Assembly (NCBI GenBank): GCA_050330335.1
Contig: JBHJNX010000116.1
Coordinates: 18,495 to 42,494 of the forward strand
Length of the DNA stretch: 24,000 nt
Direction: 5' to 3'
Source of the DNA: Pleurocapsa sp.
Lineage (GTDB): Bacteria; Cyanobacteriota; Cyanobacteriia; Cyanobacteriales; Xenococcaceae
A program made the position numbers and the translations under genes. Under the pieces are notes generated by a model. That model was not told the origin of the DNA, made no database searches, and saw only the letters and a list, made by a program, of their open reading frames with translations. Positions 15,518 to 24,000 of this stretch are shown piece by piece. Position 1 is the stretch's first letter. Each line of letters begins with the position of its first letter.

Positions 15518-16177
15518 TTACCCTATAATTGCCGAAGACAAAAAGACTATTCCGATCGCAGCGATCGCGCTACCTACAAAGCGAGTTATATATTTAAGAG
15601 AAATACGTTTGCTTAACTTAGTAGCTAGAATGTACGTTACTAATGAAATAGCTAACTGAATAATAGTAAAACCAATTAGATATGCCACTAAAGGAGTTGG
15701 TTCTGCGCCAAATATGCCTTCTCCGTAAGCAAAACCATGAAATATTCCTGATAACCCAGCTAGTGTAGTTATTAGTAAGTAATAATTGTTTTTTTCCCTT
15801 TTTTTCCCTTTAATAACTAATAAATAGCCAAATAAAACTACGGTCGCAGCAATAACTATTTCGGGAATGGGTAAATCAATCAAAGCTAAATGAATTCCCG
15901 CGCCGATACCCGTAGCAATGACAAAAGCAATGGGAATAATGATTCCTGCGGTCATCCCCACTGCCATTAAGCCACTAGCTACGATAAAAGCCAGATGATC
16001 CAAGCCAATCATTGGGTGTCCGAAACCAGACATAATGCCTTCAAAGAAGTTAGCGGGCATTTTACCCCCAAGGGGATGATGGGCGAAAGCTGGTGCGGTA
16101 ATTAATAGTTCGATGCCAACAATTCCTGCTGCTATGCTTAATTTGGATAAATAGGAATTCTGCTTTAATGATTTCAT
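15518..16177 (-). CDS. hupE: HupE/UreJ-family metal (Ni/Co) permease
   Basis: Signal-like N-terminus ending APAFA, then HHPLGG. Family motif GFGHPMIGLDHLAFIVASG. Multiple TM segments. The ORF opens at TTG 16213, overlapping the cobW-like stop; I prefer ATG 16177 (MKSLKQN..., 219 aa). Confidence 0.85.
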   Translation of the reverse strand: MKSLKQNSYLSKLSIAAGIVGIELLITAPAFAHHPLGGKMPANFFEGIMSGFGHPMIGLDHLAFIVASGLMAVGMTAGIIIPIAFVIATGIGAGIHLALIDLPIPEIVIAATVVLFGYLLVIKGKKREKNNYYLLITTLAGLSGIFHGFAYGEGIFGAEPTPLVAYLIGFTIIQLAISLVTYILATKLSKRISLKYITRFVGSAIAAIGIVFLSSAIIG

Positions 16178-16200
16178 TTTGCTATCTCTATTAGTTATTT

Positions 16201-17172
16201 TTACAATAAACAAGTTAAAAAGCCTTGTTTGAGGTCAGATTCATTGAGATTGCGCCCAATAAATATCAGTTCGTTAGTTTTAATTTCATCTGGTTTCCAG
16301 GGTTTACCAGGTCTACCATCTAGGGTCATATGTACTCCTTGAAAGACAAATCTGCGGTCTTCATCATCGACATTGAGTATCCCCTTCATGCGAAAGATAT
16401 CCTGACCGATCGCTTGTACTAATTGATACAGCCAGCGATTGAGTTGATCGCCGTTGACAACACCAGTTTGACTGATGGCGATCGCTATAACGGTTTCATC
16501 GTGTTCGTGGGCAGATTCTTCTAAGAATTGGGGGTCGATGGCTAGGGCATTTTTGAGATCGAATGCTTGCATCCCTAAAATTAAATCCATATCGATCTGG
16601 CAATTTTGGGTAGGATAAATTTTGGCGATCGCATTTCTGCCCCGTATTTTCTTAGTTAAGATGGTTAATTCTTCTAGGGTAACGAGATCGGTTTTATTGA
16701 GTAAAATTACATCGGCAAAAGCAATTTGTTCTTCTGCTTCGCTACTGTGCCAATGGTCTTGAATATATTTGGCATCAACTACGGTAATAACTGCATCTAA
16801 CTCTGTTTGTTTGTAGAGAATTTCATCGACAAAAAAGGATTGAATGACGGGGGCAGGATCGGCAAGTCCAGTGGTTTCGATGACGATATGGTCAAAGCTA
16901 TCCCGCCTGGCTAACAATTTACTAATAATCCGAATTAAGTCTCCTCTTACCGTACAGCAAATACAGCCGTTATTCATTTCCAGAATTTCTTCATCTGCAT
17001 CCACAACTAATTGATGATCGATGCCAATTTCCCCAAACTCGTTAACAATGACAGCTATTTTTTTCCCGTGTTCTTGGGTCAAGATGTTATTGAGTAAGGT
17101 AGTTTTTCCCGCCCCCAAATATCCCGTTAAAACCGTGACAGGAATTTTGCTTATTCTACTGCTTTTCTTCAT
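16201..17172 (-). CDS. COG0523 / CobW-family G3E GTPase metallochaperone
   Basis: P-loop [12 protein letters not shown], metal motif [23 protein letters not shown], plus a CobW C-terminal-like domain. It overlaps the upstream accessory gene by 17 nt. Confidence 0.9.
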
Positions 17173-17512
17173 ACTTGCAATCTATTATTTGTGCGGTGCG
17201 TCTTTCTAATTCCCCTGCGTCGATTAGTTCCGATTCAATTACCATCTTTTCCAAAGCTAGTAACCAGCGTTGATAATAGTCCCAGCTTTTATCTTCCAAA
17301 ACATATTCTGCTTCCCATTCAGCAATAGAAGCAATCAACTCCTGGCGAAAATCTTCCCATTCATAATGACCTTTTTTCGCCAAAGCCAAAGCCATCCCGA
17401 AGGCTAATCCTTCCCAGTCGCGATCAAATTTTAGTTCGCCGTTATTTCTTGGGGGCGATTCTTCACTGCCCATGAGGCTAGTAGCTGCAAAATGTTCAAA
17501 TTTTAGTTGCAT
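17156..17512 (-). CDS. Nitrile hydratase accessory (activator/epsilon, beta-homologue) protein
   Basis: 118 aa with [41 protein letters not shown]...[10 protein letters not shown]. This is the pattern of the small Co-NHase accessory protein family. It lies immediately downstream of the alpha subunit. Confidence 0.8.
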
Positions 17513-17536
17513 GATAATTAATGAATAATTAATAAT

Positions 17537-18160
17537 TTAGGTTGTTTCTACTAAGGCTACGCCCATCATGGCTTCGGGGGTGACGAGTCCTGCTAATTCT
17601 GATTCACTCATCCCTTCTGTACCAGGAGGGCGTTGGGGTAAGACAAACCAGCGTATCTGCGCGCTACTATCCCAAACGTGAATTTCAGTTGATTCGGGCA
17701 ATTCTACACCAAATTCGGTCAATACCGCCCTGGGTTCTCTAGCAACACGGGCGCGAAAGGTGGGGTCTTTAAACCAATAGGGAGGTAAACCAAGAGTGGG
17801 CCAAGGATAGCAGGAACAAAGAGTACAAACAATTACATTGTGGACTTCTGGGGTATTTTCTACCACTTTCATATGTTCCCCTTCCGCCCCCGACATTCCT
17901 ACAGGTAGCCCGATATCGGAGATAGCAGCATTACAATCTTCTAGTAATTTGGCTTTAAATTCGGGGTCAGTCCAGGCTTTTGCCACAATTTTTGCCCCAT
18001 TGAAAGGACCCATTTCTGTCTCAAAATAGTTAAGAACTTGGTTAACCGTCTCGCTAGAGATAATTCCTTTTTCGATTAGTAGAGATTCTAAAGCCCTAAC
18101 CTTGGCTGCACTATAAATTTCGCGATCGCGATCGTAACTAAAGCCGTCGTATTTGGTCAT
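17537..18160 (-). CDS. nthA: Nitrile hydratase alpha subunit, cobalt type
   Basis: 207 aa with the metal-binding claw VCTLCSCYPW. Thr in CTLCSC is the Co-type signature; Fe-type enzymes have CSLCSC. Flanking conserved blocks NGAKIVAKAWTDPEFK and VWDSSAQIRWFVLPQRPPGTEG. Confidence 0.95.
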   Translation of the reverse strand: MTKYDGFSYDRDREIYSAAKVRALESLLIEKGIISSETVNQVLNYFETEMGPFNGAKIVAKAWTDPEFKAKLLEDCNAAISDIGLPVGMSGAEGEHMKVVENTPEVHNVIVCTLCSCYPWPTLGLPPYWFKDPTFRARVAREPRAVLTEFGVELPESTEIHVWDSSAQIRWFVLPQRPPGTEGMSESELAGLVTPEAMMGVALVETT

Positions 18161-18176
18161 AATAATTTCTCCCCAC

Positions 18177-18923
18177 CTATGCCGATTCTAAATAGGTTTC
18201 AAACAAGTCGTTGTAGTAAACATTATTTGGTTCTGCCATTTCGCCCCATAATTCCGTTGCGGTGAACTTGACGTTATACACTGGCATGGGTTTGCCCAAA
18301 CCATCGGTAGTAGGGAAAAAGTAAGTGTAGGGTGCTGGGTAAACGACATCGATCGTGCCTACTTTCCCCCGCAGGTTGCCTGGTAGACGGGTATGTTCTC
18401 CAGGGGGTGTATCTTTAACCCGAACTGTATCCCCAACGGTGAATTTGGGAGTCATTTCTACATCCCTTTGGGGTGAATCTCCTTCTCGTAGATATTTAAT
18501 TATCTGTGCATCGATCGCAGGTTCGGGTTTGTTGGGTAAAGGGGAACTATCTAAATTGCCGTCTTCTAAATACAGGGCAGTTTTAGCATCTAATTCTTCG
18601 GCGGTAATGTAGCCTTCATTGATAAAGAAGCCTGCAATTCCTCCCAACCATTTTTCGTAGTAACGATATTTAAAATAGTCAAAGGGATTCATCCCCTCTG
18701 CACCCTGGCGTAAATGTCCCCAACTCCAAAAGCTTTTAAAATTAGTCGGTACGGTACTTATAGAATATTCGGGTACGGCATCTTTATCTAAATGATTGCT
18801 TAATGCCATCATCGCTACGTGAATACCAAAAATCCGTTCTTCCCAAGGTACGACGAATACCCGTTTCTGGAAATCTATTTCTCCTAAATTTTCTAGCCCT
18901 GCTAGATTATGTTGTAATTTCAT
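18177..18923 (-). CDS. nthB: Nitrile hydratase beta subunit (divergent N-terminus)
   Basis: 248 aa. The C-terminal half aligns by eye to known beta subunits (PKFTVGDTVRVK...HTRLPGNLRGKVGTI...VYNVKFTATELWG...VYYNDLFETYLE). The N-terminus reads HNLAGLENLG instead of the canonical (H/Y)DxGG. Beta-alpha-accessory order is typical of Co-type clusters. Confidence 0.85.
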   Translation of the reverse strand: MKLQHNLAGLENLGEIDFQKRVFVVPWEERIFGIHVAMMALSNHLDKDAVPEYSISTVPTNFKSFWSWGHLRQGAEGMNPFDYFKYRYYEKWLGGIAGFFINEGYITAEELDAKTALYLEDGNLDSSPLPNKPEPAIDAQIIKYLREGDSPQRDVEMTPKFTVGDTVRVKDTPPGEHTRLPGNLRGKVGTIDVVYPAPYTYFFPTTDGLGKPMPVYNVKFTATELWGEMAEPNNVYYNDLFETYLESA

Positions 18924-18928
18924 AGTTG

Positions 18929-18966
18929 TTGGTCATTAGTCATTAGTCATTGGTCATTGGTCATTA
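18929..18966. repeat. Tandem heptamer array TTRGTCA x5.4 (STRR2-like)
   Basis: TTGGTCA TTAGTCA TTAGTCA TTGGTCA TTGGTCA TTA. It fills the whole gap between the FGE-like stop (18964-18966) and the nthB start (18923). Confidence 0.85.
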
Positions 18967-19908
18967 CAAATTCATTGCCACGCGAAATCCGATCGCCCGA
19001 TTTAAAGATTCGGCAGGATATCCCGAACGATGTGCCGAACGACAGTGAGATGGCTTATTTGCCCAGGATCCACCCCGCAGAATACGGCATTCCGATTTAC
19101 CTCCTTTTATCCAAGCTTTACCGCTATAGGGCGAGCCGTGATAGTTGTCGTGCCAAACATCGGCACACCATTCCCGCACGTTACCGTGTAAGTCGTATAA
19201 ACCGAAAACATTGGGCATAAAGCTACCCACATCAATAGTTTGTTGGCGATAGGGAACTCCTGTTTCTACAGCATAGGCAAAAGTGCTAGCGTAGTCGGCT
19301 AAATTCCCCGTTACAGTATCCCCGTAAGCAAAAGGACTATTGCTATTACCGCGACAAGCATATTCCCATTCTGCTTCGCTAGGTAACCGGTATTGCTTAC
19401 CCGTATGTGCTGACAGGCGAGCGCAAAATTCTACTGCATCTAGCCAAGAAACGCATTCTACGGGGCGGTTTTCTCCTTTAAAGTGGGAAGGATTGGGATT
19501 TAGTTCTCGCTTTACTTGGGCAAGTTGTGCCACAGCACGCCACTGTCCTTGAGTTACGGGATATTTACCCAGGAAAAAACTTGCTACTCTTACTGAATGC
19601 AAGGGACGTTCGCGATCGCTGCTCTCTTTCTCCTTCAGTGATGCACCCATGTTAAATTTACCTGCGGGAATCGATACCATTTCTAGGGTTCGATAGTGAC
19701 CTAAATCTTCGGTGTAAAGCAAAGCCCGATGATAGGTGCGTTGTATTTCTTGTCCCGTGCGATCAACTTTTACTGTGGCAAAATCAAAATTTGGCAAGTC
19801 AGATAATTCCGAGCTAGAAGTAGTTGCCACGGCGTGATTTGCCGATACAGACCCAACTAAACCTACTCCTCCATAACCTGTCAGTTTGATAAAATTACGT
19901 CGCTTCAT
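18964..19908 (-). CDS. FGE-sulfatase-fold (SUMF1/EgtB/PvdO family) protein with twin-arginine signal
   Basis: N-terminus MKRRNFIKLTGYGGVGLVGSVSANHAVA is Tat-like. Family blocks ERPLHSVRVASFFLGKYPVTQGQW, YRLPSEAEWEYACRG, GLYDLHGNVREWC and RGGSW...HCRSAHRSG...IGFRV. Confidence 0.85.
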   Translation of the reverse strand: MKRRNFIKLTGYGGVGLVGSVSANHAVATTSSSELSDLPNFDFATVKVDRTGQEIQRTYHRALLYTEDLGHYRTLEMVSIPAGKFNMGASLKEKESSDRERPLHSVRVASFFLGKYPVTQGQWRAVAQLAQVKRELNPNPSHFKGENRPVECVSWLDAVEFCARLSAHTGKQYRLPSEAEWEYACRGNSNSPFAYGDTVTGNLADYASTFAYAVETGVPYRQQTIDVGSFMPNVFGLYDLHGNVREWCADVWHDNYHGSPYSGKAWIKGGKSECRILRGGSWANKPSHCRSAHRSGYPAESLNRAIGFRVAMNL

Positions 19909-19978: not shown

Positions 19979-20422
19979 TTACCATTTCTTGTAAGGTAAA
20001 AATTTACCGCACATGGTCACTTTAACGCGATCGCCTTTAGGATCGGGGACTTTATCTACTTCAATAGAAAAATCGATCGCACTCATGATTCCGTCGCCAA
20101 ATTTTTCGTGAATTACGGCTTTGATTGGCATTCCGTATACTTGCATGATTTCATAAAAGCGATAAATTAAAGGATCGGTAGGGATTTGGGGTTCTAATGA
20201 ACCTTTTAAGGGGGGTACGGTTAAAATTTCCGCCATTAATTCGGGTAAGCCTAAAGTAGTAACGATTTTAGTTGCTTCATCCATGTCTGCGCTGGCTTGA
20301 CGGTAGATTACTGAGGCGATCCAGGTTTCATCTCTTCCTACTACTTTTTCTAAATCTTCAAAAGTAACTCCTTTTTCTTTCTTGGCTGCTAATAATTTTG
20401 CGGTAATTTCTGAAATAGGCAT
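19979..20422 (-). CDS. cynS: Cyanase (cyanate hydratase)
   Basis: 147 aa, which is the characteristic size. N-terminal HTH-like region [34 protein letters not shown]-terminal catalytic domain ending [14 protein letters not shown]. It follows an NrtABD-type transporter as in cynABDS. Confidence 0.93.
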
Positions 20423-20476: not shown

Positions 20477-21361
20477 CTACGGTTTGATTCTCGCTTCCTC
20501 TACCGCCCTAGTCTCTCGATACAAATGATCTTCCATTTCTTTTTTTAACTTGAAATATTCAGGATGGTTTTCGACGGTGTTGCGATCGCGAGGACGGGGG
20601 AAAGGTACTTCTAATACTTCGTCGATCCTGGCTGCGGGTCCTTTGGTCATCATCACGATGCGATCAGATAGTAGTAAGGCTTCGTCGATGCTGTGGGTAA
20701 TCATAATCGCAGTTTTGCGTTGTTGTTCCCAAATTCGTTCAATTTCGTCTTGCAGAAAACCACGGGTGAGGGCATCTAATGCCCCAAAGGGTTCGTCCAT
20801 CAGCAAAATTTGGGGATTTATGGCTAATGCCCTAGCTATCCCTACTCTTTGACGCATTCCGCCTGATAGTTCGTGGGGACGTTTCTTTTCTGCCCCTGTT
20901 AACCCCACAAGCTGAATATTTTCTTTGACAATGCGTTTTTGCTGTTTCTCTGGCATTTTGGGAAATACCGTTTCCACCGCAAATTTAATATTGTCCTGTA
21001 CTGTCATCCAGGGCATTAGGGCGTAACTCTGGAAGACCATACCGCGATCGGGTCCTGGCTTGTCTACGATTTGCCCGTTAATCCTCACTTCTCCACTAGT
21101 AGCAGAACTCAAACCTGCAATAATATTAAGTAGGGTAGACTTGCCACAACCAGAAGGACCAATTATGGAGACAAAGGTGTTGTGTTCGATATCCAGATTA
21201 ATATCTTCGATCGCCACAAAGTCAGAACTTGCCTGTCCCGTCAGCTTATTCAGCCAACCTTTGCGACCAGGAAATACCTTGGAGATCTGACGCAAGGATA
21301 TCTGGGCATTACTAGGATCAGTAGACACAGTATGATAGTTAGAAGAAAATGATATACTCAT
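20477..21361 (-). CDS. cynD: NitT/TauT-family ABC ATP-binding protein (CynD/NrtD-like)
   Basis: Walker A GPSGCGKST, signature LSGGMRQRVGIARA, Walker B LLMDEPFGALD, H-loop IMITHS. 4-nt overlap with the upstream permease gene. The symbol is assigned by synteny with cynS only. Confidence 0.85.
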   Translation of the reverse strand: MSISFSSNYHTVSTDPSNAQISLRQISKVFPGRKGWLNKLTGQASSDFVAIEDINLDIEHNTFVSIIGPSGCGKSTLLNIIAGLSSATSGEVRINGQIVDKPGPDRGMVFQSYALMPWMTVQDNIKFAVETVFPKMPEKQQKRIVKENIQLVGLTGAEKKRPHELSGGMRQRVGIARALAINPQILLMDEPFGALDALTRGFLQDEIERIWEQQRKTAIMITHSIDEALLLSDRIVMMTKGPAARIDEVLEVPFPRPRDRNTVENHPEYFKLKKEMEDHLYRETRAVEEARIKP

Positions 21362-22200
21362 GGTTTGCCAAAAGAAACTAATTTTTCTAGATAGGCAAAG
21401 ATTTGGTCGAGAATGATACCTACAATGCCGATAATGAAGATTGCCACCAGAATATTGGGGATATATAGGTTATTCCATTCATTCCAGATAAAATATCCCA
21501 ATCCCGTCCCTAACAGCATTTCCGCAGCCACAATTACTAGCCAAGAAATACCCATGCTAATCCGTAACCCAGAGATAATATTAGGTAAGGCAGCAGGGAT
21601 AATCACTTTAAAGATCGTCCGCCATCTCGATGCACCAAGGGTTTTAGAGACATCTAAATAATCGGGATTAACATTAGCTACCCCAAAAGCGGTATTAGTT
21701 AGGGTAGGCCAAATACTGGCAATGGTAATGATGAATATTCCTGTAAGTTCCGAATCGCGGAAGAGATACAAACCCAAAGGCAACCAGGCTAAAGGGGATA
21801 CGGGTTTTAGAAGTTGGAAATAAGGATTAAAGGCTTTAAATGCCACCTTAGAAATCCCGACTAAAATCCCCAAAGGTACGGCAATTAAGGAAGCAAGAGT
21901 ATAGCCAATGGCTACCCGCCTCAAACTAATTAACAAATTCCAACCAATACCCAGATCGTTAGGTCCATTATCGTAGAAAGGATGAGTCACCCAATACCAT
22001 AATTCCTCAATGGTTAAAGATGCAGTGGGCATCCCCTTGGCAAACCAGTTCATTTTTGCCCCAAATTCCCAAAATAAGAGAAATATCCCCAGAGATAATA
22101 AGAATAACAGAAACGCTTGCACATTATCGTTATTCATTAATTTATTATCTTTTTTGCTATTAATTGCTTGTTCTCGAACTGCTGTCATTTCATTTACCAT
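21358..22200 (-). CDS. cynB: NitT/TauT-family ABC permease (CynB/NrtB-like)
   Basis: 280 aa, about 6 TM. EAA-type loop LDVSKTLGASRWRTIFKVIIPAALPNI. The symbol is assigned by synteny only. Confidence 0.85.
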   Translation of the reverse strand: MVNEMTAVREQAINSKKDNKLMNNDNVQAFLLFLLSLGIFLLFWEFGAKMNWFAKGMPTASLTIEELWYWVTHPFYDNGPNDLGIGWNLLISLRRVAIGYTLASLIAVPLGILVGISKVAFKAFNPYFQLLKPVSPLAWLPLGLYLFRDSELTGIFIITIASIWPTLTNTAFGVANVNPDYLDVSKTLGASRWRTIFKVIIPAALPNIISGLRISMGISWLVIVAAEMLLGTGLGYFIWNEWNNLYIPNILVAIFIIGIVGIILDQIFAYLEKLVSFGKP

Positions 22201-22270: not shown

Positions 22271-23944
22271 TTAAACGCCGTATTTCTTGATTTGTTCGTC
22301 TACGTATGCCTGGGAATTAGCAGGATCAAAGGTATCAAATGCTAAAGTTTCTGTGCGATAAATATCATCTGGGGGGGTTTGACCAACTTCTTGTGCCAAT
22401 TCTCTCGCTAAATCAGTCATAAAGATTTCTTTGCCCACTTCTTCGTATTTACCATCAGCGATCGCACTTTTCACCTTACCGTCTCCTTGTAAATCCCAAC
22501 GCACCAATTGAGAAGATATCCAGTTAGCAAAACTCTGCCAGGGATAGGGGTCGAAATCAATGCGATCTGGAATTGATTTGCTATTACCCAACCCATCTTC
22601 AAAGTTACCTGTTAAGACAGCTTCTACTACTTCTACAGGCTGATTGAGAAACGCCCTTTCAGAGATAGCTTGAGCAATTTCAGGACGGTTGGCAGGATCG
22701 CGGGCATAACCAGCAGCTTCGATAATCGATTTGTTTAAAGCCCTAAAGGTATTGGGATTAGCGGTAATCCATTCATCACTGGCAGCAAAAGCACAACAGG
22801 GATGTCCTGGCCATAATTCCTTGGTTAATTTGTGAATAAAACCAGCTTCTTCGTATACTGCCCGTTGATTGAACGGATCGGGCATTAAGTAAGCGTCGAT
22901 ATCCCCTGCTACTAATTGGGCGATACTGTCTGGTGGCGGTACAGCGCGAATTTTTACGTCTTGATCGGGGTCGATGCCTCCTGTGGCTAGGTAGTAACGC
23001 AACAAGAGATTGTGCATGGAATAAGGGAAGGGTACGCCGATATTAAAGCCTTTAAAGTCCGCCGGACCATTGACTTTACCCTTATATTTATTGGCAACGG
23101 TAATCGCCTGTCCGTTGATGTTTTCAATACTGGCAAGTTTCACTCCAAAGGAAGCCGAACCTAAACCTAAAGTCATAGCGATAGGCATCGGGGCTAACAT
23201 ATGATAGGCATCTAATTCACCAGCGATCGCCGAATCTCGAACTGCACCCCAACTGGGCATTTTTACTACTTCGGCATTAAAGCCATATTTTTTATAGAAC
23301 CCTAATGGTTCAGACATGATAATCGGGGTAGCGCAAGTAATAGGAATAAAGCCAATTTTTAAATCTTTTTTCTCCAGATTATCCTCACCAGCCACAGCTT
23401 CAGAGCTTTCTGTAGCCGCTTCTTCGGCTTGTTGATTGGGGGCGCAGTTAGCTAAGGTAACTAAAGCTGCACCCACCGCCAAGTTCTTCAAAAAACGACG
23501 ACGACTAAACTGACTATTATGAACTACGTCACCAAAGAATTGCCCCGCCTTCTGTCCAAAAGCAGCAGCAAAAGCGTTTTCTATACCTCCTGCTTGTTTA
23601 CATAGTTCTAAGACCAAGCTTTCCCGTTTTGGATCGCCTTTTCCTGCAATCTTCAGTAATAATGTCTTTCTTAAATCCGCAGTGTTGACTGCATCTGCCA
23701 TCTTGAAAGTATTAGATTTATAGACCCTCATTTTAATCAGGTCGTCGATCATTTCCACTGGATCTTGGGGCATATCTTCCGCCATAAACTTCCAGTGGTC
23801 GGCAGCCATATGAAAGCCACCGCAGACCATACACATTGAATCTAATTCTCTCAGATTTCCTTTTTGAGAATTAAGATTTCCCCATTTATTTCTAGCGTTG
23901 TTTGTAGTAAATACCATAGTTCGATCTGTAATTTGACTAGTCAT
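22271..23944 (-). CDS. cynA: NrtA/CmpA/CynA-family periplasmic substrate-binding lipoprotein with an unusual N-terminal extension of about 145 aa
   Basis: Residues about 190-557 are classic NrtA/CmpA (LKIGFIPITCATPIIM...SWGAVRDSAIAGELDAYHML...NGQAITV...HPCCAFA). The twin-arginine motif plus lipobox (SRRRFLKNLAVGAALVTLANC) sits at residues 146-167, not at the N-terminus. The exact start is uncertain: in-frame ATGs run from M1 to M82. Confidence 0.85.
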   Translation of the reverse strand: MTSQITDRTMVFTTNNARNKWGNLNSQKGNLRELDSMCMVCGGFHMAADHWKFMAEDMPQDPVEMIDDLIKMRVYKSNTFKMADAVNTADLRKTLLLKIAGKGDPKRESLVLELCKQAGGIENAFAAAFGQKAGQFFGDVVHNSQFSRRRFLKNLAVGAALVTLANCAPNQQAEEAATESSEAVAGEDNLEKKDLKIGFIPITCATPIIMSEPLGFYKKYGFNAEVVKMPSWGAVRDSAIAGELDAYHMLAPMPIAMTLGLGSASFGVKLASIENINGQAITVANKYKGKVNGPADFKGFNIGVPFPYSMHNLLLRYYLATGGIDPDQDVKIRAVPPPDSIAQLVAGDIDAYLMPDPFNQRAVYEEAGFIHKLTKELWPGHPCCAFAASDEWITANPNTFRALNKSIIEAAGYARDPANRPEIAQAISERAFLNQPVEVVEAVLTGNFEDGLGNSKSIPDRIDFDPYPWQSFANWISSQLVRWDLQGDGKVKSAIADGKYEEVGKEIFMTDLARELAQEVGQTPPDDIYRTETLAFDTFDPANSQAYVDEQIKKYGV

Positions 23945-23964
23945 TAGTCATTAGTCATTGGTTA
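23937..23964. repeat. Tandem heptamer array, same TTRGTCA unit, x4 (degenerating)
   Basis: CTAGTCA TTAGTCA TTAGTCA TTGGTTA. It overlaps the annotated start codon (23944-23942) of the cynA-like gene and has the same orientation as the 18929-18966 array. Confidence 0.7.
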
Positions 23965-24000
23965 TTAGAAGGCAGGAGTTATTCAGCCACCGATTTACAA

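Follow-up and report, generated by a model that had tools for sequence, protein, structure and literature searches.

A conserved Cys/His pre-domain precedes the twin-arginine signal of CynA, the binding protein of cyanobacterial cyanate transporters

A pre-domain stands ahead of the export signal of CynA

In a 24,000-nucleotide (nt) stretch of Pleurocapsa sp. DNA (assembly GCA_050330335.1, contig JBHJNX010000116.1, positions 18,495 to 42,494 of the forward strand; hereafter the window), we identified an open reading frame (ORF) whose product carries its twin-arginine translocation (Tat) signal not at the N-terminus of the precursor but behind 136-145 further residues. By sequence, this ORF is cynA, coding for the substrate-binding protein of the cyanate/nitrite ATP-binding cassette (ABC) transporter CynABD, an assignment made because an NrtB-type permease, an NrtD-type ATPase and a cyanase follow downstream in the same direction. 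From its N-terminus, the precursor consists of a variable tail, a Cys/His knuckle (CxxCGGxHxxxxH) and a ~95-residue helical domain, directly followed by the twin-arginine signal with a Cys-containing lipobox-like site. The same architecture was found in more than 200 cyanobacterial CynA proteins, Prochlorococcus among them, and sequence comparison indicates that this pre-domain is a hallmark of CynA and not an oddity of this genome. By definition, a Tat signal lies at the N-terminus, and signal regions that are removed by cleavage tend to be short and to rank with the most variable stretches of a protein. A whole subfamily of transporters in at least two major phyla has retained, under strong selection, a folded and probably metal-binding domain (47-145 residues) before the signal, along with an unusually conserved hydrophobic (h-) region.

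The initial annotation of the window had reported a Tat signal with lipobox at residues 146-167 after a long extension, and a C-x2-C-x3-H motif and predicted helices within the extension, all of which we recovered, the lipobox as a lipobox-like site. The gene had been taken to code for an NrtA-type binding protein and had not been recognised as cynA. Positions 23444-23944 correspond exactly to codons 1-167, which run from M1 to the L-A-N-C cysteine, and the signal S146-R-R-R-F-L-K-N-L-A-V-G-A-A-L-V-T-L-A-N-C167 is matched by TIGR01409 over residues 147-171 (24.3 bits against a cut-off of 16.7). The Cys/His motif (C38, C41, H45) is present and runs on to H50, forming a putative knuckle that probably binds zinc, and structure modelling places six helices in the extension. 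Two statements on the start site required revision. The 66-145 residues proposed to precede the signal are most likely 136 rather than 145, because homologues begin (M-V-F/I...) at the position of M10. Secondly, the frame had been described as free of ATG, GTG and TTG between M82 and the RRR motif, whilst codon 110 is in fact TTG; this does not matter, since the codon encodes an invariant Leu inside the conserved domain. The most conserved block of the helical part spans residues 103-139 (K-R-E..L..A-G-G-x-E-x-A-F-x-A-A-F-G..A-G-x-F-F-x-D), within which the A-G-G..A-F-x-A-A-F-G..F-F residues beside the signal are invariant. The signal h-region, residues 151-166, is the sole hydrophobic stretch in the first 200 residues.

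Table 1 Features of the CynA precursor and of the cyn operon in the window. Residues are numbered from M1; AF2, AlphaFold2; pLDDT, predicted local distance difference test; dN/dS, ratio of non-synonymous to synonymous substitution rates.
Feature	Position	Strand	Basis or remark
cynA, whole ORF	22271..23944	(-)	557 aa from M1, 548 aa from M10; stop codon 22271-22273 included; 100% match in own genome
ATG of M10, likely true start	23915..23917	(-)	homologues begin M-V-F/I here; 94% query coverage; first column of the 16-sequence alignment
Variable N-terminal tail, residues 10-27	23864..23917	(-)	mean pairwise identity 0.28; AF2 pLDDT <50
Cys/His knuckle, residues 28-52, C38-x2-C41-G-G-x-H45-x4-H50-W-x-F-M	23789..23863	(-)	Cys/His invariant in the 16-sequence alignment; aligns to proteobacterial CxCG..H....H
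Helical part, residues 53-145	23510..23788	(-)	AF2 pLDDT 80, 93-95 in the best block; five helices, plus one in the knuckle
Twin-arginine signal S146-R-R-R-F-L-K, h-region 151-166, lipobox-like L-A-N-C167	23444..23509	(-)	TIGR01409
Variable tether after Cys167, residues 168-189	23378..23443	(-)	identity 0.19; dN/dS 0.23-1.1
NrtA/CmpA-like substrate-binding domain, residues 190-557	22274..23377	(-)	PF13379, E 1.6e-77
cynB, permease	21358..22200	(-)	TIGR01183 above cut-off; order kept in ~45 loci
cynD, ATPase without NrtC-type regulatory domain, 294 aa	20477..21361	(-)	TIGR01184 above cut-off
cynS, cyanase	19979..20422	(-)	TIGR00673 and NF002773 above cut-off

The pre-domain is under strong purifying selection

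When residues 1-150 were used in a word-indexed search, 232 proteins were returned and, among the matches listed, all are of ~510-580 residues and share the architecture. Fused homologues come from Myxosarcina, Xenococcus, Hyella, Pleurocapsa, Moorena, Leptolyngbya, Halomicronema and Adonisia, as well as from many metagenome-assembled genomes (MAGs). In a 16-sequence alignment, C38, C41, H45, H50 and more than 50 further columns are invariant; in two wider alignments, the Cys residues and H50 are invariant or conserved in at least 90% of members. A few CynA pre-domains are entirely without CxxC (L095, 6929-7300, and P0146), and such variants include an uncultured Synechococcus with a K-Q-T-repeat stretch instead and a Geminocystis fragment starting with His-rich H-S-P-H-D-H-D-H.

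Codon comparison with five orthologues showed that the pre-domain is under strong purifying selection. The proportion of non-synonymous differences (pN) is 0.10-0.21, against 0.72-0.79 for synonymous differences (pS), and dN/dS is ~0.04 where dS is unsaturated, as compared to ~0.03 in the binding domain and 0.23-1.1 in the tether. Mean pairwise identity over 50 non-redundant CynA proteins climbs towards the RR motif, from 0.28 in the tail to 0.44 in the knuckle, 0.57 across residues 53-102 and 0.71 across residues 103-139. Beyond this point, it is 0.44 in the N-terminal (n-) region of the signal, 0.71 in the h-region, 0.19 in the tether and 0.79 in the binding domain. A sequencing error, which the initial annotation had named as a possible refutation, finds no support, as DNA of the window is present in four independent stromatolite-metagenome runs (93-99% of sampled words), all runs containing it being of DNA and none of RNA, and the extension is both coding and shared by the homologues above.

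The pre-domain is present in every sampled cyanobacterial CynA and remains fused to it

We searched 401 cyanobacterial genomes in six frames and found the pre-domain in 23 of them (17 of 155 genera), always within an open frame of 531-595 residues. When the same genomes were searched with the binding domain only, all 24 matches of at least 66% identity, again from 23 genomes, had the long frame; the next relative below this split (L051) is 54% identical and has a short frame of 452 residues. The pre-domain is thus present in every sampled cyanobacterial CynA orthologue, missing from NrtA/CmpA-type paralogues and restricted to the cynS-linked branch. The premise that NrtA/CmpA-family lipoproteins begin with the Tat signal holds for the two paralogues of this genome, which start M-x(3-6)-R-R-x-F-L, and likewise for 24 orthologues of one of them; it fails for the CynA subfamily, whose members as a rule carry the extension.

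The order pre-domain, substrate-binding domain, cynB, cynD, cynS recurs in ~45 of 50 cyanobacterial loci collected by a named-genome scan and tblastn, which is nearly all of those with sufficient flanking sequence. It is seen, for instance, in Acaryochloris marina MBIC11017, Nodosilinea nodulosa PCC 7104, Moorena bouillonii PNG, Hyella patelloides and Halomicronema. The protein layout is shared by Prochlorococcus WP_052043481.1, which UniRef names 'Cyanate ABC transporter' and which stands at the head of a cluster of 749 sequences. Prochlorococcus cynA has been used as an ecological marker of cyanate use.

Some CynA-like proteins are orphans without cynBD. L051 (1495-2853) has kept the knuckle, as C-x2-C-G-x-x-H-x4-H, and the RR signal, whilst its helical part is gone; P0152 (544 residues) has a full but divergent pre-domain with an insertion, and L092 keeps the full pre-domain. 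L051 and P0152 (L002:6031-7665) adjoin genes of the methyl-accepting-chemotaxis type, with no permease or ATPase adjacent.

Exhaustive phmmer comparison of residues 1-145 with 1.84 billion representative proteins gave 41 matches. No intact stand-alone pre-domain was found among these representatives, where the inspected matches were fused proteins, fragments or frameshifted pieces, or in the 401 genomes read in six frames, so that the earlier suggestion of a formerly separate small gene fused in frame finds no support. The lone unfused copy, in a Microcystaceae MAG (L106, 6938-7261), is frameshifted, with the knuckle followed by M-P-Q-N-P and the helix in another frame, and lies directly before an intact cynS; judging from this arrangement, it is evidently a relic left after deletion of the 3' part of cynA together with cynB and cynD.

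A shorter counterpart occurs in proteobacteria

Outside the cyanobacteria, loci were picked up in the named-genome scan only via the start of the binding domain, and were then read upstream in frame. They belong to Burkholderiales, Bradyrhizobium, Tardiphaga, Rhodopseudomonas, Thiofaba, Rhodospirillales and one Abditibacterium (L109-L133; e.g. L118:3014-3304 and L122:6812-7072). Most are cynABDS operons, and most have 47-77 residues ahead of RR. The proteobacterial extension comprises a conserved D-P-[FY]-D-x-x-R-P-L element, a C-x-C-G that is invariant and precedes His residues (CxCG..H....H), a variable linker, and a helix (F-[IV]-E-A-x-L-V-K-A-L-F-P-Q-D) that abuts R-R-R-F-L. Signals of these proteins end in an AxA site and have no lipobox Cys. 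Public annotations already include the extension, in 36 proteins of 343-481 residues (most 457-481).

Profile-profile alignment (hhalign) of the cyanobacterial and proteobacterial extensions gave a probability of 92% and an E-value of 5.3e-7 over the knuckle and the following helix, whilst the tail of this alignment, which sets the proteobacterial RR on cyanobacterial helix residues, is probably not meaningful. A common origin of the two extensions is probable on these grounds, in which case the cyanobacterial lineage would have added some 60-70 helical residues.

The signal is constrained beyond what is usual

R148 and R149 are present in 50 of 50 CynA sequences, and the Tat family PF10518 was matched in 16 of 34 homologues. 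The h-region is 16 residues long and moderately hydrophobic (Kyte-Doolittle (KD) value 1.35 for residues 151-166), with a pN of 0-0.04. Its identity of 0.71 in CynA compares to 0.47 in the canonical paralogue family at a like identity of the mature domain (0.76). The CynA signal is therefore constrained far more than usual, and this constraint is continuous with that on the adjoining pre-domain.

Of 171 distinct cyanobacterial CynA signals, 168 have a Cys after the h-region, and three members (L049, L078, L091) have none. At -1, 125 signals have Asn, in the pattern L-[TAS]-N-C, against 33 with Ser, 8 with Ala and 2 with Gly, whereas each of the 23 paralogue lipoboxes that were counted, from 24 sequences, has Ser, Ala or Gly. 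The usual lipobox consensus is [LVI][ASTVI][GAS]C, and Asn at -1 is non-canonical for signal peptidase II.

The pre-domain matches no described family or fold

The initial annotation had recognised no family in the extension, and our searches agree. Residues 1-145 of this protein gave no matches in Pfam or NCBIfam. Across 34 members, Pfam returned the Tat signal only, plus scattered weak zinc-finger matches in single members (E 0.02-0.06, to zf-DNL, zf-C2HC_3 and Zn_ribbon_3); the ZAS (H-x3-C-x2-C) and zinc-ribbon/knuckle families were not matched. A profile search of the PDB reached a best E-value of 0.66, and the best match by ESM Atlas features (0.78) was uninformative.

A first AF2 model from 34 sequences was poor (pLDDT 63). 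A second, from 64 diverse sequences and covering residues 24-148, had a mean pLDDT of 80.4 and a predicted TM-score (pTM) of 0.50, showing a small knuckle and then six helices, with confidence peaking at 93-95 over residues ~103-143. This model found no significant fold match: the best Foldseek E-value against the PDB was 1.9, the best Z-score from VIA-align over all 48,161 cluster representatives was 4.9, and TM-scores against the Atlas were at most 0.34. The initial annotation had named as a refutation the discovery that such extensions are common and already characterised. They did prove common in the CynA subfamily, whilst no characterisation of them was found: no description of the pre-domain was found in the literature on cyn operons, Tat targeting or cyanobacterial substrate-binding proteins, though an older mention is possible. 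The sequences themselves are public and annotated as ordinary binding proteins; what appears to be new is a conserved pre-domain on a known transporter and a known export signal.

A proposed role in export control, and its alternatives

During insertion, a Tat signal forms a hairpin whose N-terminus remains on the cytoplasmic (cis) side of the membrane (PMC7317946). Because of this mode of insertion, and because the pre-domain has no hydrophobic segment of its own, we consider it highly probable that the pre-domain stays in the cytoplasm whilst the folded binding domain would be exported. Cleavage of the precursor would then take place behind the h-region: in cyanobacteria, the lipoprotein pathway would cut at Cys167, and in proteobacteria, signal peptidase I would cut at the AxA site. 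That mature CynA ends up without the pre-domain is reasonably likely, because the Cys is so widely kept and the proteobacterial signals have AxA sites; the latter also argue for its removal as the ancestral state. Of the two other readings in the initial annotation, the cleaved pro-domain or chaperone-like segment is favoured by these sites, whilst the unusual Asn at -1 keeps a cytosolic domain on an uncleaved signal-anchor in play.

We posit that the pre-domain acts in cis on its own precursor, as a built-in and probably zinc-stabilised export-control module. Such a module would hold or shield the adjacent signal, would govern when or whether the folded precursor reaches the Tat receptor, and would be discarded along with the signal peptide. 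This is a committed guess, to which we give somewhat less than an even chance. It is suggested because conservation peaks beside RR and runs into the h-region, because a knuckle and a single helix set against RR make up the minimal form seen in proteobacteria, and because the pre-domain was never found split off.

Several points weigh against export control in cis. The usual reason for Tat hold-back chaperones is cofactor insertion, and we know of no cofactor in CynA. NrtA and CmpA, close relatives on the same export route, do without such a domain. No similarity to TorD-, DmsD- or NapD-type chaperones, or to any known fold, was detected (34 members at E<=1; PDB, Foldseek and VIA-align). Zinc binding cannot be essential in all members, because the few named above lack CxxC. 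Signal peptidase II may be slowed or blocked by the Asn that 74% of distinct signals have at -1, in which case cleavage would be slow or absent. Lastly, strict fusion would be equally expected if the h-region anchors a fragment that works after cleavage.

This last point leads to the main alternative, in which one gene yields two products, and which we regard as rather unlikely. The cleaved pre-domain, together with the h-region, would persist as a small, membrane-anchored, cytoplasm-facing accessory subunit of CynBD, made 1:1 with CynA. Two roles are conceivable for this subunit: a regulatory module replacing the C-terminal domain of NrtC/CmpC, which CynABD lacks, or an adaptor docking PII or the cyanase decamer at the transporter exit. 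The conservation of the h-region relative to the paralogues, with so few non-synonymous differences, would fit a transmembrane helix with a lasting partner; yet this region is short, and its hydropathy is typical of a transient Tat signal, not of a stable anchor. Cleaved signal peptides are, moreover, normally degraded. CynD is a plain ATPase of 294 residues without a regulatory domain, whereas the solved NrtBCD/CmpBCD complexes carry one, and nearly every locus has cynS as part of the operon. According to a review, the cyanate transporter of S. elongatus is likely to be controlled with the involvement of PII (PMC6603209). The orphans point both ways: L051, without cynBD, lost the helical part and kept the knuckle and signal, but P0152 and L092, equally without cynBD, keep the full domain.

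A second alternative, which seems to us improbable, is an uncleaved signal-anchor. The h-region would be a permanent transmembrane helix, making CynA a bitopic protein with a cytoplasmic Cys/His element and a periplasmic binding domain, either signalling across the membrane or staying tethered beside CynB. Asn at -1 where all counted paralogues have Ser, Ala or Gly, the three Cys-less members and the high conservation of the h-region speak for this arrangement. Set against them are the textbook AxA sites of the proteobacterial homologues and the retention of the Cys in 98% of distinct signals, which is hard to explain without lipid modification and, normally, subsequent cleavage. Behind the Cys, the tether is hypervariable in the manner of ordinary lipoproteins, and 16 residues are short for a permanent helix.

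Isocyanic acid (cyanate) carbamoylates thiols reversibly. The knuckle might hence be more than a structural zinc site, namely a sensor of cytoplasmic cyanate, or of zinc or redox state, that gates export or stability of CynA or docks cyanase at the transporter, a long shot that we mention because only the cyanate branch of the NrtA/CmpA family carries a Cys/His element before the signal, in cyanobacteria and proteobacteria alike. If true, uptake would be under feedback control at the step of binding-protein export.

That the extension is an artefact (a sequencing or assembly error, a mis-called start with initiation just before RR, or read-through of the upstream gene), as the general expectation of N-terminal signals and the TTG at codon 110 might suggest, can be dismissed almost entirely given the same frame and architecture in many genera and in complete genomes, the low dN/dS, the four independent runs, and invariant residues that lie ahead of any internal codon at which translation could begin.

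Export gating, a second product or trans-membrane tethering would each represent a layer of ABC-importer and Tat biology not described in the literature that we found. In practice, signal-peptide predictors that expect N-terminal signals may miss a signal of the CynA type, and the pre-domain affects the design of recombinant CynA constructs.

Comparison with known systems

The protein is a member of the cyanobacterial CynABD group (cynABDS; Synechococcus elongatus, Prochlorococcus and marine Synechococcus), sharing an orthologous binding domain and the same operon order. With NrtA and CmpA (2g29, 2i48) it has in common the NMT1_2 fold family, a Tat signal, a Cys at the lipobox or lipobox-like site and a flexible tether. 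NrtA and CmpA differ in having the signal at the very N-terminus, Ser, Ala or Gly at -1, a poorly conserved h-region and no Cys/His pre-domain.

Tat substrates with dedicated chaperones (TorA/TorD, DmsA/DmsD, NapA/NapD and hydrogenase small subunits) have n-regions of ~10-30 residues that are bound by a separate chaperone, and carry cofactors. The likeness to CynA lies in conserved sequence upstream of RR, thought to time the engagement of the folded precursor with the translocase. CynA instead has 47-145 self-folding residues, an operon without a chaperone gene, and no similarity to those chaperones.

The extended signal peptide region (ESPR) of autotransporters and two-partner secretion proteins is ~25 residues long, serves the Sec pathway, and is neither a folded domain nor equipped with a metal-type motif. 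As a conserved, family-specific N-terminal extension of a signal peptide that modulates translocation it resembles the pre-domain by analogy only, and neither this protein nor any of the 34 members matched ESPR in Pfam.

NrtC and CmpC carry a C-terminal, NrtA-like regulatory domain (8w9m, 9uai, 9ua1), which is likewise an extra cytoplasmic module on a transporter of the same family. It differs in being on the ATPase subunit, in having a fold like that of the binding protein where the pre-domain is small and helical, and in having no link to an export signal. By analogy, the pre-domain could fill the regulatory niche of this domain, which is absent from CynABD.

Genomic context of cynA

The gene heads the co-directional operon cynA-cynB-cynD-cynS, and all three partners score above their family cut-offs. 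The Pfam match of CynA to NMT1_2 covers residues 189-428, and the PDB relatives of its binding domain are the NrtC/CmpC regulatory domains, CmpA 2i48 and NrtA 2g29, the last two at E 1e-48 to 1e-49. This domain is 66-85% identical to those of sampled cyanobacterial orthologues, and 72% identical to the Prochlorococcus 'Cyanate ABC transporter' protein.

The present operon differs from other cynABDS loci in continuing into a nitrile hydratase module: cynS is followed by an FGE-sulfatase-like gene, nitrile hydratase beta, alpha and accessory genes, a CobW GTPase gene and HupE-like genes (window 15518-19908). No nitrile hydratase genes were found in ~50 other examined cynABDS loci with the pre-domain, several of which have HupE or CobW nearby. 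The module is a peculiarity of this genome, and a nitrile hydratase link was ruled out as an explanation of the pre-domain, which goes with cynA because the other loci carry it without nitrile hydratase genes.

No strict NtcA box (GTA-N8-TAC) occurs within 320 nt upstream of cynA, where only GTT-N8-TAC is present, at -304, and the 5' region of the gene has no Rfam match. A histidine-kinase-like ORF ends ~300 nt upstream of cynA, and the spacer is AT-rich. A 7-nt tandem repeat at 23938-23968 (TAGTCAT x 4.4 on the plus strand, ATGACTA in the direction of the gene) overlaps with the cynA ORF at its first ATG and creates three ATGs in different frames just upstream of M10.

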